NCBI GenBank assembly: GCA_964459725.1
Contig: CAYWNT010000005.1
Span: 27,657 to 91,656, forward strand
Reading direction: 5' to 3'
Source of the DNA: an uncultured Gammaproteobacteria bacterium
GTDB lineage: Bacteria > Patescibacteriota > Patescibacteriia > Patescibacteriales > UBA12075
Length of the DNA: 64,000 nucleotides
Shown here: positions 25,840-56,083 of the stretch, in pieces
Numbering within the stretch: position 1 is the stretch's first letter
Layout: the number at the start of each line of letters is the position of its first letter
The notes under the pieces: generated by a model
Database searches by the model: none
The model's input: only the letters and a program-made list of their open reading frames with translations
What the model was told of the DNA's origin: nothing
Translations under genes and position numbers: made by a program

Positions 25840-26247
25840 ATGGAAACAAAAATAACATATTTAAGTCCTGTTAATTATGATACGTGCCGTGATGGACAGC
25901 AAACTTTTGTTAGATCGATGCAAATTGGCCTTATTATCAAAAATGTAGAAGTATATTATCCATTAATTATAATCGATATTGTTAAAAACAAAATTGAAAT
26001 ATCGTGCGCAAGAGGCTTCATAGGAAACGATCATATATTTTTTGAAGAAGAGATTCCAGTAGACATTTCACAAAAGGCCTTTCGGTGGGCCGAAAAAAAC
26101 AAGCAAGAAATTGAAAGGCTAGGAGAGAAAAATATCCACGCCAAGGCTGTAGAATTTTTGAGAATAATAAACTGGGGCTACTTTGCGGAGATAATTAAGG
26201 AAAAATACTCATACGATTTACTGCTAGATATGCAACCCGTACCTTAA
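25840..26247 (+). CDS. Hypothetical protein
   Basis: GGGAGG SD before METKITYLSP; 135 aa; no family recognised. Confidence 0.5.
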   Translation: METKITYLSPVNYDTCRDGQQTFVRSMQIGLIIKNVEVYYPLIIIDIVKNKIEISCARGFIGNDHIFFEEEIPVDISQKAFRWAEKNKQEIERLGEKNIHAKAVEFLRIINWGYFAEIIKEKYSYDLLLDMQPVP

Positions 26248-26470: not shown

Positions 26471-26683
26471 TCAAAACCCCATTCTTTTCATGCCTCTAAA
26501 AAAACTTTTTACGTCTCTCGTGTTCCACGCCATAAAACCACCTTGGCGTTTCCAGATTATACAAGCGATAATAACTGACAGCCACATTATCGGGCTAAAT
26601 GGAAACAGGCAAATTGCTAAAACTGAAAAACCTAAAAAAAACAAATCACATATCATAGCCATAACCTGAATAAAGTAAATCAT
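26471..26683 (-). CDS. Small membrane protein (hypothetical)
   Basis: 70 aa, two hydrophobic segments, basic C-terminus. Confidence 0.4.
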   Translation of the reverse strand: MIYFIQVMAMICDLFFLGFSVLAICLFPFSPIMWLSVIIACIIWKRQGGFMAWNTRDVKSFFRGMKRMGF

Positions 26684-26868
26684 GACACTCCTCCCGGATA
26701 TAAAAATGTCTTAAAAATTACACTACAAAGAACAAAAATCCTGAAATATTTCTCCAGGTTGTTTTTCTAGATTACATTGTTTTTAGCCGAAAGTCAATCT
26801 TGGGAAAATATTTAAATAATGGTTTTTCGCTATAATTTTTAGCAAAATTCAAAATATTAACTTTTTAC

Positions 26869-26897
26869 TTGATTTTTATGTATTTTTTTGCTATATT
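26869..26897 (+). promoter_or_regulatory. Sigma70-type promoter of the micro-ORF unit
   Basis: TTGATT (26869-74) - 17 nt - TATATT (26892-97); near-identical in layout to promoter at 29570. Confidence 0.5.
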
Positions 26898-26941
26898 AAA
26901 ATTAACTTAAAGGGATTTAAAATTTAAACCTGGAGAAAGTC

Positions 26942-27157
26942 ATGGACAAATGCGCATTGCCTACTGAAAAAGGAAGTAGCATTTAAGGAGATTCCAATGG
27001 AAAAAGGAGCGAGTCCCATTCAACACATTACAGACGAAGAGAAAGGTGACTAACATGAAAACCAGGCTGGAGTTGCAAGACGACTAAACACCAGGAGGCT
27101 ATCATGCACGAAAAAGAGAACACAATGCTCTTTGATTGGCCCATTTGTGAAGGATGA
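26942..27157 (+). other. Four tandem SD-led micro-ORFs (14, 18, 10, 17 aa) or a structured leader/ncRNA
   Basis: ORF1 26942-26986 MDKCALPTEKGSSI (GGAGAAAGTC-ATG); ORF2 26997-27053 MEKGASPIQHITDEEKGD (TAAGGAG); ORF3 27055-27087 MKTRLELQDD (1 nt after ORF2 stop); ORF4 27104-27157 MHEKENTMLFDWPICEG (AGGAGG). Confidence 0.45.
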
Positions 27158-27205
27158 CTAGAGTGCGAACCCTAAAGATAAACAATTTTCTCCCCACCCC
27201 AAAAT

Positions 27206-27250
27206 CCTGTTTTCTGAAAAAAATCAGAAAGCAGGGTTTTTTCTTTTTTT
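27206..27250 (+). terminator. Rho-independent terminator closing the micro-ORF unit, 110 nt before pyrH
   Basis: CCTGTTTTCTGA-AAAAAA-TCAGAAAGCAGG then GTTTTTTCTTTTTTT. Confidence 0.75.
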
Positions 27251-27361
27251 CGGAAATATAAAAAGTCAAAAAAAACAACAAACACTTTTATAATACCCCA
27301 CTCCCTGCTATAATATTATAAGAAAAACAAAATTTAATTATTAATTTTAAAAAAATAATAA

Positions 27362-28048
27362 ATGCCAAAAAAAATATTCATCATCTCTCTGGGAGGATCA
27401 CTGATCGCTACTGATGAGGGAATTAATCATTCTTATTTGAAAAAATTTCGAGAGTTAATCCTAAAGCAGATAAAGAAAGGTCATAAATTCTTCCTGATCG
27501 CCGGAGGTGGAGTTACAGCTAGGAGCTACATCCGAGCAGCTGATAAAATTACAAAGGTGACAGATGATGATCGTGACTGGCTTGGTATTCACTCTACTCG
27601 CTTGAACGCCCACCTGGTCAGAACTATTTTTAAAAAAGAAGCGCATAGACAAATTGTTAAAAATCCGACTTTTCACATGCACACTAACAAAAAAATTATC
27701 GTCAGCGGAGGCTGGAAACCGGGCTGGTCAACTGACTATGTAGCCACTATGATTGCTCAGGAATATGAAATACCAACCGTAATTAATCTCTCCAATATCG
27801 ACTACGCCTACGACAAAGATCCTCGTAAACATAAAAATGCGAAAAAAATGATAGATATAACTTGGAAAGACTTCAGAAAAATCGTTGGCGACAAGTGGTC
27901 ACCGGGCCAGAGCGCTCCATTCGACCCGATTGCTTCCAGAAAGGGAGACCAACTCGGACTAAAAGTTATCATCGCTAATGGGACTAAGCTGAAAAATTTG
28001 GAAAAAATATTTAACGATGAGAAATATAACGGCACAACCATAAACTAA
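27362..28048 (+). CDS. pyrH: UMP kinase, archaeal-type (amino acid kinase family)
   Basis: 228 aa; IISLGGS.., AGGGVTAR, SGGWKPGWSTD, C-terminal ..NGTTIN parallels archaeal PyrH as I recall it (..GTTIEP). Confidence 0.72.
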   Translation: MPKKIFIISLGGSLIATDEGINHSYLKKFRELILKQIKKGHKFFLIAGGGVTARSYIRAADKITKVTDDDRDWLGIHSTRLNAHLVRTIFKKEAHRQIVKNPTFHMHTNKKIIVSGGWKPGWSTDYVATMIAQEYEIPTVINLSNIDYAYDKDPRKHKNAKKMIDITWKDFRKIVGDKWSPGQSAPFDPIASRKGDQLGLKVIIANGTKLKNLEKIFNDEKYNGTTIN

Positions 28049-28120: not shown

Positions 28121-29293
28121 CTACTTAAGACCGTGGCAAGTCTTAAATACCTCACATTTTCTACAATTGCCAATTTTACTGGCAGCCGCTCCTTGTATTT
28201 TTCCACCACAAAATGTTCCATCCTTTACCCAGCACTTATGACCATCATCAGGATAAGCTGGACAAACGCCAAACTCAGCTACATTGACGCCTCCCTTTTG
28301 GCGACCGCATTTTTTCACTTCCCAACAATTAGGCAAATTGATATTATTCCGCTGTCCAAAAATTTGTAAATAAAGTTGCAAAACAAAATCAGTTGTCGTA
28401 GAAGCTTGCTTTCCTATGTCAGCTGCTATAGCAGCCAATTGATCAGATCGGTCGACATTGGCCTGAGTTACTCCGCCAAGACTGGAAATTACCTGACTTA
28501 CTTCTCCTATACTGATTGATTGCTCATTTGTGGCATTGGCGATTTCATCAACCAAATTCATTACTTCCATCTGGTCATTTTTCACATTCTCAAAAACCGA
28601 CTCTGTGTCAACTACTATACCAAATGATTCTTCTATTCCATTCGTGATGCCTTCAATTGAAACCGAAGTCTCTTTTGCAGCTTCTGTCGCACGCAAAGCC
28701 AAATTTCTCACCTCATCTGCCACAACAGAAAATCCCATACCTGCTTTTCCTGCTCGGGCAGCCTCTACCGCAGCGTTTAAAGCAAGCAGATTTGTCTGAA
28801 AGGCTATCCCGTCAATTATCTTTACAATTTTGCTTGCTTCTTCACTAACCCTCCTGATGTCCGTCATTTTATTTTTCACTCCGGTTGTTAAGTCAGAAGC
28901 ATTGGTAATCATGTTGCTAAAATCTCTCACCAAAATATTCATCTCTTTGGAGTTTTCAGCATTCTTCTTAGTAGTCGAGGAAGTTTCCTCCAGAGATACC
29001 GAGCTCTCCTCCAAGGCTACCGCCTGAGATGAAGTATCCCTGGCCAATGACTTACTGGCTGACAACATATTCTGAGACGTAACATCAAACTCTCCTGCTC
29101 TATCGACTAAGGCATCGACAACCACACTAAGCTTTCCAACAATGCCCCGAGACAAAAGCTCTGATACTCCAATCGCCACCAAAACTGCTAACAACGCAGC
29201 ATAAGGCAAAGGCAAAAACTCATTAACAACAAAAACAATCAAACCGCAAAGAAAAAAACAAACATATATTTTTTTACGTATCCCAAACTTCAT
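28121..29293 (-). CDS. Methyl-accepting chemotaxis protein signalling domain with C-terminal Cys-rich (two-CW-like) domain
   Basis: 2 TM; [37 protein letters not shown]; C-terminus [42 protein letters not shown]. Confidence 0.85.
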
Positions 29294-29569: not shown

Positions 29570-29597
29570 TTGATTTTTTATATTTTTCCGCTATACT
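29570..29597 (+). promoter_or_regulatory. Sigma70-type promoter upstream of RT non-coding region
   Basis: TTGATT (29570-75) - 16 nt - TATACT (29592-97). Confidence 0.5.
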
Positions 29598-29603
29598 AGT
29601 AGC

Positions 29604-29801
29604 AAGGCTGCCTTTTTACTGCCTTTTGTGTTTTTTGCAAAGGGTAAAAAAAGGGTCATCTGTGATCGGATGGCTCATTCATTGTAAACTGCAACTTCTG
29701 CCAAGTCCTGCACAATCGATTTATGCTGTAACTACGCAGGCTCTGACAAACGCTGTTGGCAGTTTCACAATCCTGAGACTTTGAAATCGTCGTAGCACCT
29801 T
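29604..29801 (+). ncRNA. Candidate retron msr/msd-like structured non-coding RNA (boundaries uncertain)
   Basis: G+C-richer than flanks by eye; hairpins 29653-29676 and 29698-29762; possible end pairing 29604-11 with 29795-801; directly upstream of a retron-type RT. Confidence 0.4.
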
Positions 29802-29969
29802 ATTTTATTATTATTATGATGATTATTAAAAAGTTTCACAACTTAAGTTTTCTGGGATGTTTTATGATCAAAATTATCTAATAAAATTGCCCAAGAAGAC
29901 TGCAACCGCTCTTTCAGGTGGGAGAACTTGAACTTTTCCTATTTACGAGCGGGAGGAGCCTTAACTTGT

Positions 29970-30004
29970 GGGAGGTGTGTTTTATCCACCTCCCTCTTTC
30001 TTTT
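29970..30004 (+). terminator. Terminator/attenuator-like hairpin 25 nt upstream of RT start
   Basis: GGGAGGTG (29970-77) / CACCTCCC (29987-94), 9-nt loop, then TCTTTCTTTT. Confidence 0.5.
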
Positions 30005-30028
30005 ACAACTAAATACGAGGAGGAAGAA

Positions 30029-31066
30029 ATGGTCAGTGAAGATATTCTTCAGAAATACTACTACATTTTTAAAGAATATTTCTCTGTTCCTCCCGCATAT
30101 TTTGACGGACTCTACTATACAATTTGTTCTAAAGAAGAATTGTATAGAAAAAGTAGAGAGCCCAAAAAAAACGGAGGATTCAGAGAAATACACGCACCCT
30201 GCGAAGCATTAAAATTGATCCAAAGAAAATTGCATAAGTATTTTAGTACAATTGAAATTGATGATAATCTTTTTGCCTACAGAGAAGGTGGGTCACCGAT
30301 AAAAAATGCAATTAGCCACGTAAAGGACAACAAGGGGCCGGAGTGGATGCTGAAAATGGATTTGAAAAATGCATTTCCTTCTGTAGACGCCCCCCTGCTT
30401 CAGATTGTACTACGAGCAATTCTCATTGAGAACGATAAGCTCCAAGAAGAGTTTGATTCATTTATTGGATTTGATCGCAATTTTGACGAATTTATTAAAA
30501 TTCTCATCTCTCTTGTAACTCACAACGAACGTCTAACCCAGGGAGCTCCATCATCCCCATCCTTGCTCAATCTTTCCTTGACCTATCTTGGTATAATTTC
30601 CGAGATAAAATCATTGTGCCAAAAACACGGTGTTAATTTTTCTGTCTACTCTGATGATTTTGTCTTTACATCAAATACAAAAATTTCAAAAAATTTCAGA
30701 AAAGACATTACAGTGATAATAGAGGGAATGGGATTTTTTGAAGTAAACCCAGAAAAAACCATGCTGAGCAATTTCCGTCATAGAGCGCATAAAATAACCG
30801 GAGTAGTTCTCACAGTAAATCCAATTGGAAATATAAGATTCACCCTTCCTCAAAAAACAATAAAAACTTACAGGGGAAAAATCAACAGGGTAATTAAGAT
30901 GTTGTCTGAGGGGAAATACCCAACCAAAAAAGAAGACGGAATATCAGTCAACGAAATCAAAGGAGAAATTAACTGGCTGCGAAGTGTCTGCGGAGATAAT
31001 CTTCCTTCAGCCGTAAGAAAACTTGTTTTCAAATTCGAAAACATACTACGGGACACAAGTCCTTAA
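30029..31066 (+). CDS. Retron-type reverse transcriptase (RT domain only, 345 aa)
   Basis: GAGGAGG SD 5 nt before ATG 30029; GGFREIHAP, NAISH (NAxxH), MDLKNAFPSV, LTQGAPSSPSLLNL, YSDDFVF, HKITGVVL motifs in canonical order. Confidence 0.85.
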   Translation: MVSEDILQKYYYIFKEYFSVPPAYFDGLYYTICSKEELYRKSREPKKNGGFREIHAPCEALKLIQRKLHKYFSTIEIDDNLFAYREGGSPIKNAISHVKDNKGPEWMLKMDLKNAFPSVDAPLLQIVLRAILIENDKLQEEFDSFIGFDRNFDEFIKILISLVTHNERLTQGAPSSPSLLNLSLTYLGIISEIKSLCQKHGVNFSVYSDDFVFTSNTKISKNFRKDITVIIEGMGFFEVNPEKTMLSNFRHRAHKITGVVLTVNPIGNIRFTLPQKTIKTYRGKINRVIKMLSEGKYPTKKEDGISVNEIKGEINWLRSVCGDNLPSAVRKLVFKFENILRDTSP

Positions 31067-31090
31067 ACTAATTAAAACTTCACATTCATA

Positions 31091-31123
31091 CCCAATCGCA
31101 ATTACGCGGTTGGGTATTTTTTT
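31091..31123 (+). terminator. Rho-independent terminator of RT gene
   Basis: CCCAATCGC-AATTAC-GCGGTTGGG then TATTTTTTT. Confidence 0.75.
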
Positions 31124-31132: not shown

Positions 31133-31175
31133 CAGGGTTAATCATGTTTCACTTGTGTGAAAATGATTAACCCTG
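31133..31175 (-). terminator. Long hairpin terminator of the convergent 60-aa ORF
   Basis: CAGGGTTAATCATGTTTCAC-TTGT-GTGAAAATGATTAACCCTG (about 19 bp, one bulge); U-tract on minus strand at 31121-31132. Confidence 0.7.
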
Positions 31176-31209
31176 GCTTGGCTCAGCAAATGCTTATTCT
31201 CCGAATAGT

Positions 31210-31392
31210 TTAAGCAATAGCTGTTGCGCCGGTCGCCTCAAGGGGGACAAAAGATTCACCGTAACATGGCTCGACAGGAATCACCTGGGCAGCATCATCG
31301 GCTGTATCATGGCAGAGTACCTTACATTCATCGGTAGGATTGGCTTTCAGTCGGCGGCGGTGATCATGTTTTCTTCCAGTTGGAACGGTCAT
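31210..31392 (-). CDS. G+C-rich small ORF (60 aa, hypothetical)
   Basis: AGGAGG SD 7 nt before ATG; MTVPTGRKHDHRRRLKANPTDECKVLCHDTADDAAQVIPVEPCYGESFVPLEATGATAIA; own promoter candidate TTGACT-16-TAAAAT (31523-31496, minus strand) and terminator. Confidence 0.55.
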   Translation of the reverse strand: MTVPTGRKHDHRRRLKANPTDECKVLCHDTADDAAQVIPVEPCYGESFVPLEATGATAIA

Positions 31393-45722: not shown

Positions 45723-45834
45723 GGGGAGCCATTCAAAAAAGGCTTCCCGTACTGGTTAATACCCTTTCGGGTATCAGCTCACACAAGCAAAAACCAGACA
45801 GAAAGCCGTCTCTGTCCTTGTGTGAGTCTTTTTA
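45723..45834 (+). ncRNA. Candidate plus-strand structured small RNA ending in a terminator
   Basis: Three consecutive hairpins (45723-48, 45759-74, 45778-826) then TCTTTTT; the first stem has a G-U pair only on the plus-strand reading. Confidence 0.35.
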
Positions 45835-46007
45835 ACCATGCCTTAAGCTAATAAGGTTTAGGTTGCTCAATTAAATTGTAACTTAAAAATAACATAAATA
45901 GCAATAAAAATCAATATTTTATTGCAAATTTAATTATACTAAACGGCTTCAACATAGTTTATCATATTGTACATAAAATTTTCCTCAAGAAATTCTAAAG
46001 TTTTTAT

Positions 46008-47388: not shown

Positions 47389-47420
47389 AAATATTTTACA
47401 GTCTCATATTTTATAAAAAA

Positions 47421-47443
47421 AACAAGAAATTCGTTTTCTTGTT
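47421..47443. terminator. Bidirectional terminator
   Basis: AACAAGAAA-TTCGT-TTTCTTGTT flanked by A8 and T6 tracts; between convergent genes. Confidence 0.7.
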
Positions 47444-47450
47444 TTTTGTT

Positions 47451-47984
47451 TTATAATCTCTGTGTCAACTCTAAAACCTGCCTCAATAATCTAATTACTT
47501 CTTGCTTTTTATTAAGCCCTGGCCGAGTAATCTCTTTTATAACATTAGTACTAACCAAGCTTCTAACAAAATTAATATCCATATTTCTCCCCGGACATGA
47601 CTTATTTGCATAATCTCGATGAAACAAAATATTGTTTTTATTTATTCCATATTGCTTCACTAATTTTCTAAGCAGGTCTCTTAAAGCAAATATTTGATTT
47701 GATGTAGATTTTTCTAAATCAAAATGACCATCCAAGCAAACATGAATACACCGACCGTCATTCATATTTCCTTGATAACAAGCAATGGTTCTCTCTCCGT
47801 TTTTTCTAGCCTGCTTTACTCTTCCGTTTTTTGCTATCTCATAATTATATCCGAGATAATAACCTAGAGAACTTTTTAATTTCCACCAAGCCTTGTGAGT
47901 ATTGTTATTTGCATTGAACTGATCAGAATTTTTATCATATGACACCGCACTATGATGTATCATTATATATTTTGGTTTTTGCAT
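47451..47984 (-). CDS. Endolysin, N-acetylmuramoyl-L-alanine amidase (Amidase_2/PGRP type)
   Basis: IMIHHSA.., GYNYEIAKNG.., LFHRDYANKSCPG motifs. Confidence 0.85.
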   Translation of the reverse strand: MQKPKYIMIHHSAVSYDKNSDQFNANNNTHKAWWKLKSSLGYYLGYNYEIAKNGRVKQARKNGERTIACYQGNMNDGRCIHVCLDGHFDLEKSTSNQIFALRDLLRKLVKQYGINKNNILFHRDYANKSCPGRNMDINFVRSLVSTNVIKEITRPGLNKKQEVIRLLRQVLELTQRL

Positions 47985-47988
47985 AAAA

Positions 47989-48216
47989 TTAATGTTTAAT
48001 TATCAAATAAATAATATTAGCAATATTGCCAACTCCCATAAAACCTAAAAACCATTTAAGATTCCTAATAGTCGTTGCTACCTCAATTCTAAATTGAGTA
48101 TTCTTCTTAACATTGCCATTAGTCTCATCTAATCTCTTGATAATTCCTTTATGCCCAGTAGAATTGTCATCTTTTAGATCCTTGATTTTATCAAGAATCA
48201 AATCCAGCTTATCCAT
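47989..48216 (-). CDS. Holin-like or lysis-associated small membrane protein
   Basis: 75 aa, single C-terminal TM, adjacent to endolysin. Confidence 0.45.
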   Translation of the reverse strand: MDKLDLILDKIKDLKDDNSTGHKGIIKRLDETNGNVKKNTQFRIEVATTIRNLKWFLGFMGVGNIANIIYLIIKH

Positions 48217-48217
48217 A

Positions 48218-48382
48218 TTACTTATTGTCTAAATACTTTTTATAAAACCCACGACCAATAAAGACAGCAACACCTATTAAAAGCAAAACAGTGCCTTGCC
48301 AAATATTGCTCTGTATAACTGCTACGCCAGTACTCACAAATATAGTGGCCACTGACAATAAAAGTTCTTTTGTGTAATCCAT
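48218..48382 (-). CDS. Holin-like small membrane protein (2 TM)
   Basis: From MDYTKELLLSVATIFVSTGVAVIQ..LLLIGVAVFIGRGFYKKYLDNK; two TMs plus a charged tail. Confidence 0.5.
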   Translation of the reverse strand: MDYTKELLLSVATIFVSTGVAVIQSNIWQGTVLLLIGVAVFIGRGFYKKYLDNK

Positions 48383-48399
48383 AAATATAAAAATTAATT

Positions 48400-50148
48400 T
48401 TAAAAATAATTCCAATTAACCTCTTTGACGTTAATCTCATTTGTATTATTTGATTTACCTTTCAATTTTACGCAACCAACTAGCCTAACCCCTGCATCCT
48501 GATTATTCATCGCTTTAATTGTCTTGCTATATGATAAATACCAGATATCATCTCCCAAATCTTCAATTGACTGCAACATCATATCCTGTAAATTTTCATC
48601 ATCTCCCACTGGTTCAAGACTTATTAATCCATATGCATCAATCCTTATTAATTGAGCGTTTGTTGAATATGTATTCTGCAATTCTTCTGTCACCGTTAAT
48701 GTGTTACTAACAATACCTTGCACCTCAACTAATTTCATTTTTTCATCTTCCAATAATATTGCTCTATCTCCCACCTCAAAATCACTTGCATCTGTAAGCT
48801 CAATATCTGCTTGTCCTGAATTTGCAATTGAAGCTAAATTAATTTTGATAACAGCCTTTTGCTTAAAATATCCGTTTACTGTAATCGTTTCATTTAGTAC
48901 CTTAAGCTCTTTTGTAAAATACCAACCATATTTTGCATACTTTCTTTCATTGCTGTACCCCGAATAAAATCCGGGGCTTGTAGTGCCTACAACTTTACCT
49001 GCCTCAATTCTAATTCTTCCATTTCCTCCATTCCCACCATTGCCATAACTATCATTTGTGCCACTACTATTTATTCCCAAGCCTCTAGTTCCACCCCTAG
49101 CATGAATATATCCTGTACCAATATCAGCCTTGTTTAAAACCTGAATAAATATAGTCCCACCTGATCCTCCTCCGCCTCCAGCAGAATAATAACTCCCCGG
49201 ATGAGTATTTTCATCTCCACCATCTAATCCGTCATTGCCATCACAGTCAATCTCGCCATTAACAACCATATTTTTACAATGCAATCTGATTATTCCTCCT
49301 CCATGTCCTCCATGACCCCAGCCTGGCATTTGATAGTTCGAACCTCCACCGCCACCGCCTGAACCTCTTAAATATTCAATAGAAAAAGTATTTGATAGAC
49401 TTTCGTTATTATAAACTTCACCACCATATCCATAATCTCCTCCATACTTATTACTTCTACCTCCCGCACTCCCATATCCTCCTCCCCCACCTCCACTTCT
49501 ATAGCTTGACGAGCCTGAACCATCTCCGCCTCCACCGCCTCCGCCATTTGCTTCATTTGCCCTATCTCCCGATCCTATATAACTACTGCCTTGATATCCC
49601 CATGGATCACCACTACTTCCTCTGCTATGACCTCTGCCTTTTGCTGAAATTATTCCCCCGGCTTCAATTTCAATATTTCCTTGGCATTTAATTTGGATGT
49701 TACCGCTTATATAAATTGTATGTCCTGCTTGAATTAATATTGAAGTAAAGTTTTTCTCGCTTGACCATGTTGTATTTCCAGTACTGACAAAAGCTCCATC
49801 TGATCCATCTCCCAAATCAGGAGCCAGCAATCTTGTAAATTTATTATTTAAAGTATCCAAATAACCCAAGTACTTGCCGATTGACGATCCTTCAGGATAA
49901 GAATTACTTAAATTATCTTTCATAGTTAAAGTGTTACCGACAATACTATCAATCACAGCTGTTTCAAATCCATTCATATTGTCATACACTACAACCTGAT
50001 CTCCTATCTTAAATTCTGATGCATCACCAACTACAATATTTCTTTGGCTAGCAATCGCCTCGCTATCAATATAAGTTATCCGCTCATCAACATATTCATT
50101 GCTGGTCATATCATCTTGTGTTATTCCTGTTAGTTTTAATTTTGGCAT
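48400..50148 (-). CDS. Glycine-rich tail fibre/spike-like protein
   Basis: 582 aa; central GGGGGGDGSGSS.. / GGGGGSGGT.. runs; duplicated terminal domains; position between baseplate-like genes and lysis genes. Confidence 0.6.
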   Translation of the reverse strand: MPKLKLTGITQDDMTSNEYVDERITYIDSEAIASQRNIVVGDASEFKIGDQVVVYDNMNGFETAVIDSIVGNTLTMKDNLSNSYPEGSSIGKYLGYLDTLNNKFTRLLAPDLGDGSDGAFVSTGNTTWSSEKNFTSILIQAGHTIYISGNIQIKCQGNIEIEAGGIISAKGRGHSRGSSGDPWGYQGSSYIGSGDRANEANGGGGGGGDGSGSSSYRSGGGGGGYGSAGGRSNKYGGDYGYGGEVYNNESLSNTFSIEYLRGSGGGGGGSNYQMPGWGHGGHGGGIIRLHCKNMVVNGEIDCDGNDGLDGGDENTHPGSYYSAGGGGGSGGTIFIQVLNKADIGTGYIHARGGTRGLGINSSGTNDSYGNGGNGGNGRIRIEAGKVVGTTSPGFYSGYSNERKYAKYGWYFTKELKVLNETITVNGYFKQKAVIKINLASIANSGQADIELTDASDFEVGDRAILLEDEKMKLVEVQGIVSNTLTVTEELQNTYSTNAQLIRIDAYGLISLEPVGDDENLQDMMLQSIEDLGDDIWYLSYSKTIKAMNNQDAGVRLVGCVKLKGKSNNTNEINVKEVNWNYF

Positions 50149-50154
50149 ACATTT

Positions 50155-50607
50155 TTATCTATAATAATAAGCAGTTACGCTGAAATTTCTATATGTGTTA
50201 TTCCAGCTAGACCCACATGACTGTGTGCATGTTAAAACATCTCCAGAAATTGAGCTTGCCACCCGACTCCAATAACTATCGCTATCAACTCCAGGCTGTT
50301 GTTTTAGGGTTTGACTCGTAATTCCTTCTCTTGCCAACATCACCTGTCCATTCCAATTCCAACCGCTAACTGAATGAGATATTCTTAAAACAATAAAATT
50401 GCAATCTGGCGGAATTGTGCCTGTGTCTGTGCATGGCGTAGAATAATTTGACTGACTGTCACTTAATCCTTCAGAACTTATAAACTCCCAATGAGCTGAT
50501 CTGTTCAAAGAAATAATATTTTGTGCCAAAGCTCTCAATGCTTTCATTATATTATTTATTTCAAACGCAAATAATTTATTTTGTCCTTGTTTTTTGTCTA
50601 AACTCAT
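50155..50607 (-). CDS. Hypothetical phage structural protein
   Basis: 150 aa, S/W/C-rich; tail-module position. Confidence 0.45.
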   Translation of the reverse strand: MSLDKKQGQNKLFAFEINNIMKALRALAQNIISLNRSAHWEFISSEGLSDSQSNYSTPCTDTGTIPPDCNFIVLRISHSVSGWNWNGQVMLAREGITSQTLKQQPGVDSDSYWSRVASSISGDVLTCTQSCGSSWNNTYRNFSVTAYYYR

Positions 50608-50794
50608 AACTTCTATATTTTGATATATTCTTTTTATTGTTTTTCAAAAATAATGCTGGCTTGTTTTTTTTATCAAAAATTTCTTTCTTGCCTTTGAATT
50701 CTGCTTCCTTTATTTCGTGCTGTAAACCAAGTCTGCTGACAATATCATATGCCTCTATTTTGTTTTTAACCTCAATTTTTATTTTTAACATCAT
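50576..50794 (-). CDS. Small hypothetical phage protein
   Basis: 72 aa basic protein; start preceded by repeat hairpin 1. Confidence 0.4.
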   Translation of the reverse strand: MMLKIKIEVKNKIEAYDIVSRLGLQHEIKEAEFKGKKEIFDKKNKPALFLKNNKKNISKYRSYEFRQKTRTK

Positions 50795-50802
50795 ATTTAA
50801 AA

Positions 50803-50832
50803 CTTGCCCGCCGTAGCTTTAGCGTAGGAGGG
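50803..50832 (-). promoter_or_regulatory. Phage intercistronic stem-loop repeat, copy 1
   Basis: Minus strand CCCTCC-TAC-GCTAAAGCT-AC-GGCGGG-CAAG; starts right after the upstream stop, 8 nt before the next ATG. Confidence 0.6.
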
Positions 50833-51399
50833 TCATACGCTTACAAATGTATATTTTTGGCTTATAACTAAAACTGTATTATTATCCTTAACCCAATTAA
50901 TTCCTGTAATATGCGACCAAAGATTGCCTGTGTCTGGGTCTTCATCACCGTCAATAACATTTCCAAATTCTGTATATGTTCCTGCACATTCTGTTTCTGT
51001 AAAAAATGCAGTCAATAAAACAACATTTTCATCATCAGTGCCACTGGCCATGTCATTCCTATAAACTTCATTTATCAATGTTGTATCACCGTCACTTGCA
51101 ATACCACTCCCATCACCCAGCAATGCTTTATTGATATATCCTGTATAAGTAGTATCACCGACCAATCTTTTTATTAGAGCATTAAAACCAGTTCTGCAAA
51201 TCACATTAAATCTTCTGTTTTCCTGCACTAAATCACCTAAAATATAGTATTTCATTATTTTTGGAAATAACGGACGTAAATTACGCAAAATTTTATTAAA
51301 AGCAATTTCACTCTTTGTTAATTTTGATTGATCGTAAAACTTAGCCGTGATATCTCCGACTGCATGTGCATTTTCTTTTGTATGTTTTTTTATAATCAT
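50833..51399 (-). CDS. Hypothetical phage structural protein (distant paralogue of 63438..63851)
   Basis: Start at MIIKKHTKEN, 8 nt after GGAGGA of repeat copy 2; LLGDGSGIASDGDTTLINE.. pattern. Confidence 0.5.
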   Translation of the reverse strand: MIIKKHTKENAHAVGDITAKFYDQSKLTKSEIAFNKILRNLRPLFPKIMKYYILGDLVQENRRFNVICRTGFNALIKRLVGDTTYTGYINKALLGDGSGIASDGDTTLINEVYRNDMASGTDDENVVLLTAFFTETECAGTYTEFGNVIDGDEDPDTGNLWSHITGINWVKDNNTVLVISQKYTFVSV

Positions 51400-51403
51400 A
51401 TTG

Positions 51404-51434
51404 CTTGTCCTCCATAGCTTTATGCGCAGGAGGG
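51404..51434 (-). promoter_or_regulatory. Phage intercistronic stem-loop repeat, copy 2
   Basis: Minus strand CCCTCC-TGC-GCATAAAGCT-AT-GGAGGA-CAAG, then CAAT-ATG. Confidence 0.6.
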
Positions 51435-52934
51435 TTAACTTAACTCGCTTGTATCTAAACAAAATTCTCTCTCGGGGTCTGTGTGACCTGTTGGAATATA
51501 AGGTGCTAAAACAAATATTGGTCTAACTCCTGCCCCAAATGGGTCTTTTTCAATTGACTCTGTCACCTCAACTGTTTTATAATCTTCCATTTCTTCAACC
51601 AAACCAATCTCCTCATCAACCTGAACATCTTGATAATCAAGGTAATATTTTTTTAAAACAGCGTTCTCATTTAAAGTGACTTTTTTATTTTCTCCCACCA
51701 GTAAACTCTGCAAAAAGCTGATCATTCCTAAAGTTTTAAGTGTGGCTAATTCAACCGTCCATTCTCCCTCTGTTGCAGTAAACATTTTTAAACTAACTCG
51801 CATTATCAAAAAATTTTCATTTATACTCCTTGCTGATAAATTTATACTTATAGTCTGCCCCGAACTCAATCCACTTAAATATGTTCTAAATCCTCCCTCT
51901 CTTATAGTATTTGCATAAGCTGATAGTTGTGCCTCACCGTACTGTTTAGCCTCATTAGTGGTCTTGATACTCTTATCAATTTTTTTAAACTCAAATCGTC
52001 CATATTTTGAAATACTGGCATTATCTTCTACTTGAGCCATAATCGGGATAAGATAATATCCGCTAATCTCAATTACATCACCACTTACTGGCGGAACTAC
52101 AAATCTGACATATTTCTCGTTATAACTCCAAAGACAATCATAATCATCATCGCTGTTTAAAAACTCCGTTCCCACGCTCACCTCAACACTGTTCACCTTT
52201 ACAGTCGGCTTTTTAGAAAATTTATAATCTGTAGCAAAACTCTTTTGATTGCCATCACCAGTATGCGGTTTTGTTCTTTCATTGTCTGATGTTATCTCAC
52301 CGCCCTCAATTATTACTACATTCCTAAGCTGGCTTAAATCATTATCTATACTTAAACTGTCCCTGATATAATTATCACTGCCGTCTGCAATATTAAATGA
52401 TGCTGGCTCATCATTTTTAGAAAAAAAATGAATATCATGATCATAATCGATATACCAACTATAATTAAATAACTCACAAAGCTCTGTTAAACATTTACTA
52501 ACGCTCAAATTATTAAATGCCACTACTGTCACCTCTAAGCTACAATTCACATTGTTATAAGTAATGCCTGTACCTGCCAAATAATTTGTGACCAAAAACT
52601 CAATAATCTCATTAACTGTTTTATTCTCAAATCTTTCAATGACCAATATTCTGTCCAAATCCAAAGTATAATCCTTGGTTTCAATTTCATAATAAACAAC
52701 ATCTCCTTCGGCATAATTACCAACTCTTATAATCTTGCCTGCAAATACCTTCTCCGCTCCGTCAAACACTTCAACTATGTCACTAATCTCAGGTTTATAG
52801 CCTTGCCCTTCAAAAACTTTGATTGTAAAATTGCATAAATTTGGTTGTTCGTTAATATTGTCTTCAATATTGAAACTATCCCAATCAACTAAATTCGTTT
52901 TTTCTTCATTGTTTATTTTTAAAATAATATTCAT
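51435..52934 (-). CDS. Distal tail / tail-family protein (tentative)
   Basis: 499 aa immediately downstream of the tape measure gene. Confidence 0.5.
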   Translation of the reverse strand: MNIILKINNEEKTNLVDWDSFNIEDNINEQPNLCNFTIKVFEGQGYKPEISDIVEVFDGAEKVFAGKIIRVGNYAEGDVVYYEIETKDYTLDLDRILVIERFENKTVNEIIEFLVTNYLAGTGITYNNVNCSLEVTVVAFNNLSVSKCLTELCELFNYSWYIDYDHDIHFFSKNDEPASFNIADGSDNYIRDSLSIDNDLSQLRNVVIIEGGEITSDNERTKPHTGDGNQKSFATDYKFSKKPTVKVNSVEVSVGTEFLNSDDDYDCLWSYNEKYVRFVVPPVSGDVIEISGYYLIPIMAQVEDNASISKYGRFEFKKIDKSIKTTNEAKQYGEAQLSAYANTIREGGFRTYLSGLSSGQTISINLSARSINENFLIMRVSLKMFTATEGEWTVELATLKTLGMISFLQSLLVGENKKVTLNENAVLKKYYLDYQDVQVDEEIGLVEEMEDYKTVEVTESIEKDPFGAGVRPIFVLAPYIPTGHTDPEREFCLDTSELS

Positions 52935-52953
52935 ACTTGTCCTTTGAAGCTTT

Positions 52954-52995
52954 CTTGCCCGCCATAGCTTTAGCGACGGCGGGAGCGTAAGAGGG
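52954..52995 (-). promoter_or_regulatory. Phage intercistronic stem-loop repeat, copy 3 (composite)
   Basis: Minus strand TAG-CCCTCTTACGCT-CCCGCC-GTC-GCTAAAGCT-AT-GGCGGG-CAAG; then AAAGCTTCAAAGGACAAGT-ATG. Confidence 0.6.
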
Positions 52996-54660
52996 CTAAC
53001 CTAGCAAATTACTTGTCTTTAACTTTCTAATCATTAAATCTCCGATCCTCTCTGCACCTTTTCTGTCCATTATTGTATTGCCTGTAATATTTATATTGAT
53101 CACATTACCTCTTCCACCTAATCTGCTATTAGGAATTATGTTGCCACTACTGCCAGGCACAAACAATTCGGGTCCCTGCTCACCAACAATATATGCTTTA
53201 GTCGGACTAACAAATCCGCCACTTGCTCTTCCTCCGCCAAATCCCAAAGCGTTGCCAATCGCATTTTTTGCCCCTTGTACTACATTCAATTTTTTTATTC
53301 TCTCTATCAATTTATCAATCCAACCAACAACCTTTGAAATTGTGCTGGTGGTTGCATCCCAAATCCCCTTAAACTTCTCAATACCAGCATTCGCTACTTC
53401 AATAATCTTCGTTAAAGTTTGGATTAACACAATTAAACTGACTTCAATTATTTTAACTACCGCTATTAACGCTCCCAACAAAATAACTCCAATAACTTGG
53501 GCGAAAACTTCTAAAAATGGCTTAAGCGGTTCTAGTGCCTCCCATAGCTTTTGCAATTCAGGTAGTAAATTTTCTTTAAATACTAATGCAATATTTTCCC
53601 ATGATGTCTTGAATATAACTAGCAATCCCTTATATCTATCTACAATATCGATTCCTTTCTTTACAATATCTATAAAACTTTTAGAAATATCAATAACTGT
53701 CTTAATTGCAATTTTTAATGCCTCAAACGCAGTCAATAAAACTTGTCCAATAATATCAGCTGTTGCTTTTAATTGCGGATTGATCTCATTTTCTTCTGTA
53801 AATGCCCACGCTTTAAAACTCTTAATCGATTTATAGACATATTCAATCATCGGTTTCATGGCATTATCAAGCATCTCTCCTAAAATAAGTTTTAAACTCA
53901 CTATTCCGTCTTTTACTGAATTAGACATTTTATACCAACTTCCCATTGCCTCTGTATACGATCCCTCCATTCTGGTTGCCTCGCCAATTATAGCGTTGTA
54001 CATGGCTTGTGTTTTTTGAGCATATGTAAGTTCACTGGTTTTAATTCCCAACTGCTCTGATGCATCTTTATAAACCTTTACCAAATTCATCTCAATTCCA
54101 TATTCGCTTAAAAGTTCCGGGCGAAGTTTAACTACCGCTTGCATCATGGCTTTAATGGCATCATTGGAGTTCTTATTTGAGGCGGCGGCTACATCTCTAC
54201 CTCTGGCTACAATTTCCAAAGCCTGCGACTCACTCATATTGGTCATGATTGCTGTTTTTGTGAGTTCAATCGATGTTAACATATCCTTGTTTTCGTCCCT
54301 GATGCTTTTCACCAAACTATCAATTTGTTTTTTCGACCAATTATTGTTTTCACCTAGCTTATAAATAACAGCTTTTGATTGCCCCAGCTGACCAGTTAAA
54401 TTAATACTATCCTTAATGAGTCCTGATAAACCACTGGCAAGTTTACTGACAGTACCGACAATCGCACCGTATGCTAAATTACCAACTGTCACAGCCTTGG
54501 CCATGGCACCAAAAGAACTGGATGTGTTTTTTGCATCCCCTGAAATACCATTCAATGCTTTACTGACTTTTTTCATCTCTGAACTAGCATTGTCAACAGC
54601 TTTTAATATAATTTGTAGTTCTTTATTATCTGCCATTTTGTTTTTTATTTTTTTCGGCAA
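52996..54660 (-). CDS. Tail tape measure protein
   Basis: 554 aa helical A/I/K-rich protein with hydrophobic segment ..GVILLGALIAVVKIIEVSLIVLIQ..; follows the frameshifting chaperone; TTG start (ATG alternative 54636). Confidence 0.75.
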   Translation of the reverse strand: MPKKIKNKMADNKELQIILKAVDNASSEMKKVSKALNGISGDAKNTSSSFGAMAKAVTVGNLAYGAIVGTVSKLASGLSGLIKDSINLTGQLGQSKAVIYKLGENNNWSKKQIDSLVKSIRDENKDMLTSIELTKTAIMTNMSESQALEIVARGRDVAAASNKNSNDAIKAMMQAVVKLRPELLSEYGIEMNLVKVYKDASEQLGIKTSELTYAQKTQAMYNAIIGEATRMEGSYTEAMGSWYKMSNSVKDGIVSLKLILGEMLDNAMKPMIEYVYKSIKSFKAWAFTEENEINPQLKATADIIGQVLLTAFEALKIAIKTVIDISKSFIDIVKKGIDIVDRYKGLLVIFKTSWENIALVFKENLLPELQKLWEALEPLKPFLEVFAQVIGVILLGALIAVVKIIEVSLIVLIQTLTKIIEVANAGIEKFKGIWDATTSTISKVVGWIDKLIERIKKLNVVQGAKNAIGNALGFGGGRASGGFVSPTKAYIVGEQGPELFVPGSSGNIIPNSRLGGRGNVININITGNTIMDRKGAERIGDLMIRKLKTSNLLG

Positions 54661-54826
54661 TGTAAATTAATACCTCATTTATAAACTCCCACCTTTGAAT
54701 CCTGAATTCTTCTTCTGTCCAGCCAAGCTCCGCACAAAAAAACGCTCTTATTGCTTTGAAACTTGGATCGCCAAACCGCACGAATCTGCCTATTTCGTAT
54801 TTTGCGGATTGGCTTTGGCTAAAAAA
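54626..54826 (-). other. -1 frame extension of tail assembly chaperone (G/GT-type programmed frameshift)
   Basis: Slippery T_TTT_TTA at 54826-54820 (minus strand); the -1 frame stays open for 65 codons (SQSQSAKYEIGRFVRFGDPSFKAIRAFFCAELGWTEEEFRIQRWEFINEVLIYIAEKNKKQNGR) to TAA 54628-26. Confidence 0.55.
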
Positions 54827-55107
54827 TCTTTTACAAAATTAAGATTTTCCTGAATAAACTTAATATCATCAATGCAAAGCAAATTGACATTATCGATATT
54901 CACAGGCAATATTTGCTCGTTTTCATCAGTTGCGTCCCAATCTTCAATAATCCTAGTTAGCATGACTAACACCTGCTTAATATCGCTGTCTTCCTTTTCT
55001 ATTTCTTCAATATCATTAGCTAGCACTCCGTCTCTGACTTTTACTGTAATTCCACTTTTTGGCAGTTTGATGTTTTTAACATCTCTTATATCTTTAAGTA
55101 TTGGCAT
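54790..55107 (-). CDS. Tail assembly chaperone (gpG-like)
   Basis: 105 aa acidic protein between major tail and tape measure genes, with downstream -1 extension. Confidence 0.6.
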   Translation of the reverse strand: MPILKDIRDVKNIKLPKSGITVKVRDGVLANDIEEIEKEDSDIKQVLVMLTRIIEDWDATDENEQILPVNIDNVNLLCIDDIKFIQENLNFVKDFLAKANPQNTK

Positions 55108-55111
55108 ATGA

Positions 55112-56083
55112 TTAATAGCTTGCTTGCTCGTTAGTTAATACCGCAACAATGCTCCTTGCATCACTGCTTGAATAAAATGCCTTAAAGCCGACCGTTACTT
55201 TGGCAATTTCGTTATTGTCTCCGCCAATCAATGGTTCTCTAAATTTGATTTTAGCCAAATCAATAACCAATTTAGGATTTGATGTTAAGCCAATGGTAAT
55301 TCCTGAATTTACAATCTCCAATCTCATGGCTTTTTTATTTCCGTTCAAGGCATAATCCATTAAATCTGTATTCTTAAAAAGCATTTCAATATTACCCTCA
55401 ATAGATAGCTGTTTATTAAGAAAATCATTCGGCTCAATACTGCCTAATTTCTCATCATCCTCAACATTTTTATTAACTTCTATCTCTACACTTCGAACAT
55501 CAATCGCACTTGCACCACCTAGTTCAGATAAGTCATCAGCCAGTTTCACATTAATATCTTTGCCTAAAAAATAATTTTCAGTCACATAAGCTGGAACATT
55601 GCTAGCTGATACACCTGCTTTGCCTCGAAGTACCGCCTCAAACTTCAAATAATCCTTGGCGACAGCATTTAATTTAAATGACTCAATTACTGAATTGGGG
55701 TATGCCTTTTGCTCGTTATCTCCTCTTTTTACCTCGACTGTTACTGTCGGATGTTTGGCGGATTGCAAAACCTCAAAATTATGATCATAAACACCTGCAT
55801 CAGCTGATTCTGCTGATGTTACACTACCTAGTGTGGTCAGTAAGAAGAGTCCAAAACTCTTGTCAAAAACTTCTCCTCCAATAGTGCCTCCGCTCATTTT
55901 TTTACTAACCTCCTGATCCTCACTATCTTCAATTACGCCCACAGCACGTTCTGAAACAGCCACCTCAATTTTATCGTTAATGTCTTCAGATAATGGCTTT
56001 AACCAAAACGCAGGGGCAACGACTGTCCCTCTTGTTGATTCTAAGCCGATGCCAATATTAAATTTTCTTTTTAATGTTTCCAT
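55112..56083 (-). CDS. Major tail protein (by position)
   Basis: 323 aa, directly upstream of the chaperone pair. Confidence 0.55.
   Translation of the reverse strand: METLKRKFNIGIGLESTRGTVVAPAFWLKPLSEDINDKIEVAVSERAVGVIEDSEDQEVSKKMSGGTIGGEVFDKSFGLFLLTTLGSVTSAESADAGVYDHNFEVLQSAKHPTVTVEVKRGDNEQKAYPNSVIESFKLNAVAKDYLKFEAVLRGKAGVSASNVPAYVTENYFLGKDINVKLADDLSELGGASAIDVRSVEIEVNKNVEDDEKLGSIEPNDFLNKQLSIEGNIEMLFKNTDLMDYALNGNKKAMRLEIVNSGITIGLTSNPKLVIDLAKIKFREPLIGGDNNEIAKVTVGFKAFYSSSDARSIVAVLTNEQASY

Follow-up and report, generated by a model that had tools for sequence, protein, structure and literature searches.

The 64-kb stretch of DNA from a marine Parcubacteria (CPR) genome analyzed here (the window) contains, upstream of pyrH, a short promoter-to-terminator unit in which four micro-ORFs, each led by an SD, follow one another in a nonrandom pattern and carry a frame-specific codon signal. 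We tentatively interpret this unit as an independent, lineage-specific, translated polycistronic micro-ORF transcript, with a probability of about 40%. Among the interpretations offered in an earlier, sequence-only reading of this DNA, a micropeptide operon is now the best supported: SD strength and spacing, the tiling of the cistrons and the frame-specific codon score argue for it, whereas the absence of homologs and the codon-neutral ORF3 and ORF4 argue against it.

Anatomy and codon signal of the unit

The promoter, the four SD-led micro-ORFs and the strong terminator described in the sequence-only reading are all found where it had placed them, both in the sequence and in promoter and terminator scans, and the ORF listing agrees that there is no long ORF in the unit. 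The features of the unit and of the adjacent pyrH promoter are as follows.

26869-26897, forward strand: sigma-70-type promoter, with -35 TTGATT (26869-26874), a 17-nt spacer, TG (26889-26890) and -10 TATATT (26892-26897), the latter two forming an extended TGcTATATT
26904-26941, forward strand: A/U-rich 5' leader, read from the sequence, with SD1 GGAG (26932-26935)
26932-26955, forward strand: 5' strand of the closing helices (GGAGAAA, GUCAU and ACAAAUGCGC), spanning SD1 and the ORF1 AUG
26942-26986, forward strand: micro-ORF1, 14 codons, MDKCALPTEKGSSI, with its TAA stop within SD2 (TAAGGAG)
26997-27053, forward strand: micro-ORF2, 18 codons, MEKGASPIQHITDEEKGD, with SD2 AAGGAG (26985-26990) and the ATG 6 nt on
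27055-27087, forward strand: micro-ORF3, 10 codons, MKTRLELQDD, with SD3 AAAGGTG (27042-27048) and the ATG 1 nt past the ORF2 stop
27104-27157, forward strand: micro-ORF4, 17 codons, MHEKENTMLFDWPICEG, with SD4 AGGAGG (27093-27098) and the ATG 5 nt on
27139-27193, forward strand: 3' strand of the closing helices, namely GCCCAUUUGU (27139-27148), AUGAC (27154-27158) and UUUUCUC (27187-27193), with a small hairpin between
27154-27261, forward strand: fifth frame, 35 codons, whose ATG overlaps the ORF4 stop (ATGA) and which crosses the terminator, with its stop 9-11 nt beyond the T-run
27190-27200, forward strand: C-rich tract CUCCCCACCCC, directly before the terminator
27201-27250, forward strand: intrinsic terminator, with a 17-bp stem (27201-27240), a 6-nt loop and a U6CU7 tail (TTTTTTCTTTTTTT)
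27287-27314, forward strand: predicted promoter of pyrH, TTTATA-16-TGcTATAAT

The promoter of the unit scores 9/12, with the TG extension, in the promoter scan. Transcription would start near 26904, giving a predicted transcript of about 345-350 nt that extends from about 26904 to about 27250. The terminator folds at -22 kcal/mol (z = -5.4), a value equalled in none of 200 shuffles. With 43% G+C, the unit is richer than the flanking spacers (17-27%), as had been noted earlier, and also than coding sequence (35 +/- 3%) and the genome (34%); its strand is purine-rich, as coding strands in the window are. Every gene caller left the region blank. A 60-aa SD-led gene with a private promoter and terminator, located 4 kb from the unit, is a precedent inside the window, and nearly the same promoter as that of the unit, TTGATT-16-TATACT, is found upstream of the island that precedes the gene for a retron-type RT.

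The anti-SD hybridization energies of SD1 to SD4 are -6.4, -8.2, -7.5 and -10.3 kcal/mol, respectively, the last being on par with bona fide genes (-10 to -11.6 kcal/mol for the strong-SD genes here). The SD-to-ATG spacing is 5-6 nt, so that both strength and spacing are like those of the strong-SD genes of this genome; only 16 of the 49 long genes have an SD-led start. The cistrons are tiled end to end without overlap, with gaps of 10, 1 and 16 nt, and the contacts claimed earlier, that is, the TAA of ORF1 within TAAGGAG and the ATG of ORF3 1 nt beyond the stop of ORF2, are as described. Three frames are occupied, with ORF1 and ORF4 in a common one; each micro-ORF lies in the +1 frame relative to the preceding one, and at every stop the frame of the following micro-ORF is already open. 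The fifth frame, which had been overlooked, lacks an SD of its own (only -2.1 kcal/mol) and has a noncoding-like codon score (-9.1 bits); because it crosses the terminator, terminated transcripts would carry it without a stop codon.

The earlier statement that such stop-start coupling is unexpected by chance is borne out by simulation and by survey of real sequence. The unit contains four SD-ATG sites versus 0.6 expected (P = 0.002). With coupling defined as the start of an SD-led ORF -4 to +20 nt from the previous stop, a chain of four appeared in 0 of 10,000 dinucleotide shuffles, and chains of at least three at a frequency of 6e-4; with an energy-based SD definition, the four-link chain was obtained in 0 of 4,000 shuffles at each cutoff (-4, -5 and -6 kcal/mol). 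There is no other chain of three or more on either strand of the 64-kb window, and other CPR loci, 260 kb counting both strands, have none; the 19 kb of additional flanking DNA from this genome yielded a single three-link chain, which runs through real overlapping genes. Across about 430 kb of real CPR sequence, counting both strands, the four-link chain was thus seen only once. No process other than translation would select for such tiling of cistrons by stop codons, which argues for the micro-ORF reading.

The codon signal points in the same direction. Combined, the micro-ORF frames score +5.0 bits, whereas reading the same bases in the two remaining frames gives -9.5 and -15.5. This coding-like signal, for which P is only 0.05 against shuffles, is carried by ORF1 (+2.35 versus -0.6 and -4.8) and ORF2 (+4.81 versus -3.6 and -8.2) only; ORF3 (-2.0 versus -3.1 and +0.2) and ORF4 (-0.1 versus -2.2 and -2.7) are neutral. 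The micro-ORF codon score exceeds those of 99.6% of stop-free out-of-frame pieces, and the gap between frames lies at the 29th percentile of real genes. Two noncoding controls, LOOT and the RT-upstream island, have negative scores in every frame.

RNA structure, homolog searches and the alternatives without translation

The pairing between GGAGAAAG and UUUUCUCC, on which the earlier suggestion of a structured RNA was based, belongs to three collinear helices that bring together the 5' and 3' parts of the RNA. This part of the suggestion stands, the duplex being clearly nonrandom (-21.0 kcal/mol versus -10.6 +/- 3.5 in shuffles, P = 0.003); the whole-molecule fold is ordinary (z = -0.4 for the body and -1.2 with the terminator), and the likeness to the PyrR-binding core fails (see below). 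Once the RNA is complete, SD1 lies buried within the closing helix, and this counts against the micro-ORF reading; the SD1-AUG1 region has a mean unpaired probability of 0.22 in the full-length fold. The 5' segment by itself is unstructured (-2.7 kcal/mol), so SD1 would be accessible while the RNA is being transcribed. An interior that is not unusually structured, together with the purine richness shared with coding strands, favors the micro-ORF reading; the closing helix fits an RNA-level function equally well.

It is accordingly worth considering that the unit encodes an untranslated regulatory sRNA, with the SD-AUG-like purine motifs and the C-rich tract as interaction sites, although we regard this as unlikely. 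Such an RNA could be a CsrB/RsmZ-like sponge that titrates a protein with affinity for SD-like GGA sites or an RsaE/RoxS-like base-pairing sRNA with a C-rich seed directed against the SDs of other mRNAs, and in both versions the closing helix would provide stability. A private promoter, a strong terminator, the elevated G+C content, the lack of a long ORF and the nonrandom helix are all in keeping with an sRNA gene; the C-rich tract lies immediately 5' of the terminator, and Firmicute sRNAs such as RsaE have their seeds in a C-rich tract at just this place. The unit further resembles the sponges in its promoter-to-terminator organization and its repeated SD-like GGA motifs, one of them in AAGGAUG. 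However, the nine GGA motifs in the transcribed body are a marginal enrichment over the expected 6.4 +/- 1.6 (P = 0.09); they do not appear to be displayed in loops and show no preference for the unpaired state (mean unpaired probability 0.03-0.72, similar to the body average of 0.48). Neither CsrA nor Hfq is encoded in the 64-kb window, there is no Rfam match to a sponge RNA, and the overall fold is not better than those of shuffles. A scan of the 77 translation-initiation regions in the window revealed no outstanding base-pairing target; the long-sequence duplexfold energies are artefacts of huge interior loops, and the contiguous-pairing runs are AU-rich only. A function of the RNA alone leaves unexplained the AUGs at a fixed 5-6 nt from each SD, the frame-tiling stops and the frame-specific codon signal; sponge sRNAs need neither AUGs nor tiled stop codons.

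RNAs that are both regulatory and translated offer a further comparison. Like SgrS/SgrT, RNAIII/hld and SR1/SR1P, the unit is short, is predicted to be separately transcribed and terminated, and combines SD-led short ORFs with structured-RNA features. Dual-function sRNAs and stand-alone small-protein genes encode one peptide, usually of 20-50 residues and often hydrophobic, whereas in the unit four cistrons are tiled, each encoding 10-18 hydrophilic residues, and no family relationship is demonstrable. To our knowledge, bacterial small proteins are mostly hydrophobic, and the hydrophilic peptides of the unit, which have no common motif, are unlike them.

No homolog of the unit, of its peptides or of their frameshift-fused product was detected in any database searched. 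The nucleotide search in phages and plasmids gave no match, four exact motifs of the unit retrieved nothing or seed-only chance matches from viral contigs, blastx of the unit against neighboring ORFs was negative, and no paralogs were found in the 64-kb window or in the 19 kb of new flanking sequence of the same genome. The adjacent 135-aa ORF is an orphan as well (5.8 billion proteins). Contigs with an identical kinase gene are 100% identical to the window, so there is no population variation to read. The resulting lack of conservation counts against the micro-ORF reading.

This lack of homologs is what might be expected of a young or decaying sequence without a selected function, an explanation that we likewise hold to be unlikely. 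The unit would then be either a fragment, recently acquired or rearranged, in which a promoter, a terminator and several start sites survived by chance, or a small gene broken by frameshifts. With an orphan gene next to the unit, the entire region might be of recent origin and only weakly selected; around pyrH, synteny is fully unconserved. Furthermore, three +1 shifts would suffice to join ORF1-4 into a single 70-aa product, given that the frame of each following micro-ORF is open at the stop before it. That fusion has no homolog at E <= 10, however; a 41-aa stop-free run has none by index-free HMMER search of 1.84 billion proteins, and short-query BLAST of all peptides found no match to other ORFs of the window or of the other loci examined. 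Four strong SDs correctly spaced before AUGs are not a product of decay, and neither the promoter nor the terminator nor the closing helix shows damage. Sequencing error is not the source of the frameshifts, given that independent assemblies agree at 100% identity.

Relationship to pyrH and to known RNA families

The downstream same-strand gene is pyrH, which encodes UMP kinase (TIGR02076, 186.6 bits; cutoff 158), and the micro-ORFs had been proposed to form a multi-leader attenuator for it. Judged by comparative genomics, the unit is independent of pyrH. Guided by pyrH synteny, scans of genome and metagenome contigs, along with a search of 5.8 billion proteins with contig look-ups, yielded 21 relative loci, and in none of them (45-81% identical; nhmmer and blastn) does the unit precede pyrH. 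In these relatives, pyrH lies 55-250 nt from unrelated upstream neighbors, and its synteny is not conserved at all. The predicted pyrH promoter (10/12 with TG in the promoter scan) sits 3' of the unit terminator and 5' of the gene, and its -10 region, TGnTATAATATTATAA, is kept in the 81% relative, which is without the unit. Thus, the absence of the unit in relatives, combined with the conserved pyrH promoter, argues against a conserved leader or attenuator of pyrH. With about 21% U and one U4 run, the 43 nt ahead of the hairpin (27158-27200) contain no U-rich pause tract, which also speaks against the proposal, and a search for alternative antiterminator pairing turned up nothing of note.

A more specific form of the proposal, a ribosome-gated attenuator that adds transcription into pyrH in the manner of pyrBI and pyrE, appears improbable. 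Ribosomes would pass along the cistrons, reinitiate at the AUGA shared by ORF4 and the fifth frame, trail the polymerase and block the hairpin, and read-through into the UMP kinase gene would report translation-transcription coupling or pyrimidine supply. Attenuation by terminator-invading leader ORFs is established for pyrBI and pyrE of E. coli, and the fifth frame has suitable geometry, starting on the ORF4 stop and remaining open across both hairpin arms and the T-run; its noncoding-like score suits a peptide of no importance, and the downstream gene is truly one of pyrimidine nucleotides. This scheme is opposed by all the observations on pyrH given above, from the 21 relatives to the promoter between the terminator and the gene, the missing pause tract and the missing antiterminator pairing. 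The fifth frame also lacks an SD, and by our own estimate an open frame (one in three) over the hairpin with an A before TGA would be expected by chance in about 1 of 10 cases; the need for four upstream cistrons is left unexplained.

Compared with multi-uORF leaders in general, namely, that of mgtCBR in Salmonella (mgtM, mgtP) and the pyrBI and pyrE attenuators of E. coli, the unit is similar in being leader-sized (about 300 nt), in having several very short SD-led ORFs and in ending with an intrinsic terminator 5' of a same-strand gene. With pyrBI, it additionally shares a frame that crosses the terminator, in geometry only, and a downstream gene of pyrimidine nucleotide metabolism. It differs in having four or five cistrons, where the leaders have one or two, in the conserved promoter within the unit-pyrH gap, in the lack of a pause tract and an antiterminator, and in its absence from relatives.

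The likeness to a PyrR-binding attenuator (RF00515) suggested earlier consists of ACCAGGAGGCU, one base off the CCAGAGAGGCU core, in a terminator-ended unit 5' of a pyrimidine gene. It did not survive the Rfam scan recommended in the sequence-only reading: the unit has no match to the covariance model of the CCAGAGAGGCU-loop hairpin even at E <= 10. At that threshold, cmscan of 26700-27400 returned 19 chance-level matches, none of them to PyrR, RNase P, SRP, 6S or tmRNA, and LOOT was the sole match in the whole window at the gathering thresholds. No PyrR gene was found in the 64-kb window by tblastn with B. subtilis PyrR (best E 1.2), and we know of no report of pyrH as a PyrR target.

Other candidates were tried and rejected. 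By eye, GAGAAAGUC resembles RNase P CR-I (GAGAAAGUC ... AUGACU ... GAACCC), but there is no model match; RNase P is marked by a bulged U in its P4 helix and by an ACANAA motif, and both ACANAA and the 3' strand of P4 are missing here. ARAGORN found nothing. A retron msr-msd ncRNA would be cotranscribed with the RT gene and lie just upstream of it, but the unit is 2.7 kb from the retron-type RT gene (30029-31066); the terminator of the unit, pyrH and a convergent MCP-domain gene lie between the two, and the RT gene is preceded by a promoter and a G+C-rich island (29600-29800) of its own. The unit has a closing helix, where a retron ncRNA has a1/a2 inverted repeats around a long msd hairpin, but its interior is without a long hairpin. 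A type III toxin-antitoxin RNA array was discarded given that TRF found no tandem repeat at a score >= 30 and that the downstream gene encodes UMP kinase and not a ToxN/AbiQ-type toxin. An inverton was discarded as well: a 12-nt inverted repeat flanks the promoter, but two such repeats versus 0.45 expected are not a compelling excess, and there is no recombinase nearby.

Proposed mechanism and implications

Under the preferred reading of an independent, translated polycistronic transcript, RNA polymerase would start at the unit's own extended -10 promoter, and the A-rich 5' part, unstructured during synthesis, would allow ribosomes to load at SD1. Ribosomes would reach SD2-SD4 in two ways, by de novo loading and by transfer from the preceding cistron, the next start being 1-16 nt past each cistron end. 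Four peptides of 10-18 residues, hydrophilic and mostly acidic, would be made. The strong intrinsic terminator would end transcription and insulate the unit from pyrH, which is probably transcribed from its own conserved promoter. In ribosome-free, full-length RNA, the closing helix would mask SD1 and AUG1 as well as the region of the ORF4 stop and ORF5 AUG, and thereby silence and probably stabilize the RNA. Transcription, translation and ribosome transfer between cistrons, like the function of the helix and any activity of the peptides, are inferred from these features.

A more speculative version, to which we give little credence, is that of a stand-alone "micro-cistron relay" RNA, the first of its kind, in which the translation of four cistrons of 10-18 codons, and not the peptides, is the function. 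Ribosomes would be handed from cistron to cistron and, via the AUGA, into the fifth frame, which invades the RNA's own terminator. The transcript would sense translational capacity and either control read-through toward the gene for UMP kinase or alternate between two states, one open and translated, the other closed and locked by the helix.

If the four cistrons are translated into peptides, as in the preferred reading, the unit would represent a polycistronic micro-ORF gene of unusual compactness in a CPR bacterium. As for pyrH, the regulatory link that its position invites is not supported. If the unit is nonfunctional, it would be a clean example of the start-site-like structure that an orphan, lineage-specific sequence can hold, which would be relevant to studies of de novo gene birth. 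The small proteins and regulatory RNAs of CPR bacteria are essentially uncharted, and genes like this unit are invisible to standard annotation. Chains of SD-led ORFs provide an architecture-based statistic that can flag candidates missed by methods based on homology or covariation.

Architecture of the unit and the chain of SD-led ORFs

The contig derives from a marine Parcubacteria (CPR/Patescibacteria) bacterium, and JGI metagenome 3300007510 contains the window sequence too, as do independent Logan, NCBI and ENA assemblies. Re-reading of the sequence confirmed the promoter, four short ORFs, SDs and terminator that the sequence-only reading had described at 26869-27250, 5' of pyrH. A fifth frame, not part of that description, overlaps the end of ORF4.

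Features of the unit
within 26869-27250, +, promoter, TTGATT-17-TATATT with a TG extension (promoter scan)
26942-26986, +, ORF1, SD-led
26997-27053, +, ORF2, SD-led
27055-27087, +, ORF3, SD-led
27104-27157, +, ORF4, SD-led
3' end of the unit, +, terminator, 17-bp hairpin with a U-rich tail (-22 kcal/mol, z = -5.4)
27154-27261, +, fifth frame, ATG overlapping the ORF4 stop (ATGA), reads through the terminator

Each of ORF1-ORF4 has an SD-like element 5-6 nt 5' of its ATG. The G+C content of the unit is 43%, compared with 35 +/- 3% in long ORFs and about 20% in true spacers.

The stop-start coupling had been proposed to exceed chance, and both shuffles and real-sequence controls bear this out. 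The unit contains four SD-ATG sites against 0.6 expected (P = 0.002). With a chain defined as successive SD-led ORFs, each start lying -4 to +20 nt from the preceding stop, a chain of four appeared in 0 of 10,000 dinucleotide-preserving shuffles, and chains of three or more in 0.06%. Because the SD word list was picked after ORF3 had been seen, the sites were retested by hybridisation energy to the canonical anti-SD, which gave -6.4, -8.2, -7.5 and -10.3 kcal/mol for ORF1 to ORF4, respectively (-10 to -11.6 kcal/mol for the strong-SD genes of the window); with energy-defined SDs at thresholds of -4, -5 and -6 kcal/mol, none of 4,000 shuffles yielded a four-link chain. No further chain of three or more was found on either strand of the window or in 260 kb of other CPR loci (both strands), and additional flanking sequence of this genome (19 kb) contained a single 3-link chain, passing through real overlapping genes. 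Only 16 of the 49 long ORFs in the window have an SD-led start, so that four of four is unusual even among genes.

Orphan flanking sequence and other features of the window

Features around the unit
25840-26244, +, 135-aa ORF, no relative but itself among 5.8 billion proteins
26471-26683, -, 70-aa hydrophobic ORF (membrane-protein gene divergent from the unit), no Pfam, NCBIfam or PADLOC match
28121-29293, -, 390-aa protein, methyl-accepting chemotaxis signalling domain (PF00015, 1.1e-35)
29570-29597, +, RT-upstream promoter, TTGATT-16-TATACT
30029 (ATG, strong SD) to 31066, within region 29570-31117, +, retron-type reverse transcriptase (RT), best PADLOC model RT_III-A (4.6e-41)
31088-31117, +, the RT's own terminator
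31210-31392, -, 60-aa ORF, SD-led, 52% G+C, promoter-like site near 31523, downstream hairpin at 31134-31177
45745-45864, -, LOOT RNA (RF03000), 56.7 bits (gathering score 46.4)
~47400-64000, continuing ~6.6 kb beyond the window's right end, -, prophage, ending at host ftsA-ftsZ

The 135-aa ORF, the 70-aa ORF and the unit make up about 1.6 kb of lineage-specific sequence adjoining pyrH. A perfect 12-nt inverted repeat (TTTCTCCAGGTT / AACCTGGAGAAA) at 26749-26760 and 26927-26938 brackets a 166-bp segment that holds the unit promoter, with the unit on one side and the divergent 70-aa gene on the other, a geometry like that of an invertible promoter. However, two such repeats (G+C of at least 0.4) were observed window-wide against 0.45 expected, and the 5 kb to either side of this one hold no recombinase gene. 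One copy is also part of a minus-strand terminator-like hairpin (26758-26740) in the 70-aa gene's leader.

Long ORFs show a strong orientation bias (43 of 49 on the minus strand); the few plus-strand genes include the unit, pyrH, the RT and an HDOD-histidine kinase. The 60-aa ORF, with its private promoter and terminator, indicates that such small genes occur in this genome and, given its G+C content, that a G+C-rich island alone is no evidence for an RNA gene. The 390-aa protein has a Cys-rich C-terminal tail, with CGG among its motifs, an unusual domain combination with PF00015 in a CPR bacterium.

The RT scores 138 bits against NCBIfam retron_St85_RT, under the cutoff of 235, and no effector gene is evident in its operon. 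A G+C-rich island at ~29600-29800, 5' of the RT, is predicted to fold into several hairpins and may represent the msr-msd. Just 5' of the RT SD, at 29971-29995, inspection by eye showed an 8-bp GGGAGGUG/CACCUCCC hairpin followed by a T-rich tail. Identity of the unit as the retron ncRNA was rejected: the RT, 2.7 kb downstream, is directly preceded by a promoter and G+C-rich island of its own, and a terminator, pyrH and a convergent gene stand between the two.

The prophage encodes terminase, portal, S78 protease, capsid, tail tube, HNH, N6/N4 methyltransferase and endolysin. The LOOT RNA lies in a 1.5-kb gap, ~1.6 kb beyond the endolysin gene (Amidase_2, 47451-47984), with host-like genes for inositol monophosphatase, HAD hydrolase and a SPASM radical-SAM enzyme on its other side. 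The LOOT motif had not been known to occur outside unclassified ocean metagenome sequence; in this window it is found at the junction of prophage and host on a Parcubacteria contig.

Codon signal, RNA structure and competing identities

Because the unit has no homologs, the choice between coding and structure is limited to intrinsic tests. With a codon table trained on the window's 49 long ORFs, the internal codons of ORF1-ORF4 (55 in all) total +5.0 bits in the ORF frames and -9.5 and -15.5 in the other two, a gap of 14.5 bits that corresponds to the 29th percentile among real-gene composites. The ORF-frame total is higher than those of 99.6% of stop-free out-of-frame pieces and 95% of shuffled-unit frames, and two non-coding controls from the window, the LOOT RNA and the RT-upstream island, score negative in every frame. 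The signal is carried by ORF1 and ORF2, ORF3 and ORF4 being neutral, and the fifth frame is non-coding-like (-9.1). Translation selects for SDs, tiled AUGs and stops, and codon signal, none of which is required by an RNA-only function. The correctly spaced strong SDs, non-overlapping AUG/stop tiling and frame-specific codon signal thus favour a translated micro-ORF transcript, and we assign a probability of about 0.4 to the unit being an independently transcribed, translated polycistronic transcript of this kind.

An untranslated sRNA, which would not call for these features, is an unlikely alternative. The suggestion of a structured RNA stood in part. Three collinear long-range helices pair 26932-26955 with 27139-27193, and their duplex energy is non-random (-21.0 kcal/mol vs -10.6 +/- 3.5 in shuffles, P = 0.003), but the whole-molecule fold is no better than that of shuffles (z = -0.4; -1.2 with the terminator). 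In the predicted fold, these closing helices bury SD1 and AUG1; the 5' segment folded alone is open, so that SD1 would be accessible during transcription. In a translated transcript, closure on ribosome-free RNA would occlude the first start and make the molecule more stable.

Rfam yielded no relevant match to the unit at the gathering score or at E <= 10 (PyrR, RNase P, SRP, 6S, T-box and riboswitches covered), which, with no PyrR in the window, leaves the proposed likeness to the PyrR-binding element without support. No tRNA, tmRNA or tandem repeats were found in the unit, no CsrA or Hfq genes within the window, and GGA motif enrichment is weak (P = 0.09). A decayed known gene was rejected: blastx against neighbouring ORFs was negative, neither a 70-aa product of three +1 shifts nor a 41-aa stop-free run has a homolog (the latter by index-free HMMER, 1.84 billion proteins), and short-query BLAST of the micro-ORF peptides returned self-matches only. 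Phages, plasmids and viral contigs gave no nucleotide matches above seed-length chance matches. Young or decaying sequence with no selected function we consider as unlikely as an untranslated sRNA.

Relation to pyrH

The gene 3' of the unit encodes an archaeal-type UMP kinase (TIGR02076, 186.6 bits vs cutoff 158). A role of the unit as a pyrH leader or attenuator finds no backing: the unit is present in 0 of 21 pyrH ortholog loci (45-81% identity; species-level genomes, metagenomes and a large assembly index), and an extended -10 promoter is predicted between its terminator and pyrH. Synteny is not kept; the genes next to the kinase in these loci are unrelated (Bro-N, UvrA and DHH, among others) and lie 55-250 nt away. 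The promoter core TGnTATAATATTATAA is kept in the closest ortholog (81% identity) at a similar distance to the ATG, whereas all sequence further upstream diverges, which suggests that pyrH has its own ancestral promoter and that the unit is a separate module. pyrH lacks any SD (+2.0 kcal/mol to the anti-SD); its closest ortholog likewise has no purine-rich SD motif 5' of the ATG. A ribosome-gated attenuator adding to pyrH expression is very unlikely: pyrBI-type geometry is allowed via the fifth frame through the terminator, but there is no U-rich pause tract, no SD for the fifth frame and no conservation, and the path to the gene contains a predicted promoter.

The unit, known from a single sequence, falls outside every known family; it comes nearest to multi-uORF leaders and to small-protein or dual-function transcripts, but unlike either it has four tiled cistrons of 10-18 codons on a free-standing RNA. 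The unit is an orphan, and the link to pyrH, which had been its main appeal, finds no support; its SD-ORF chain is statistically robust, yet invisible to annotation.
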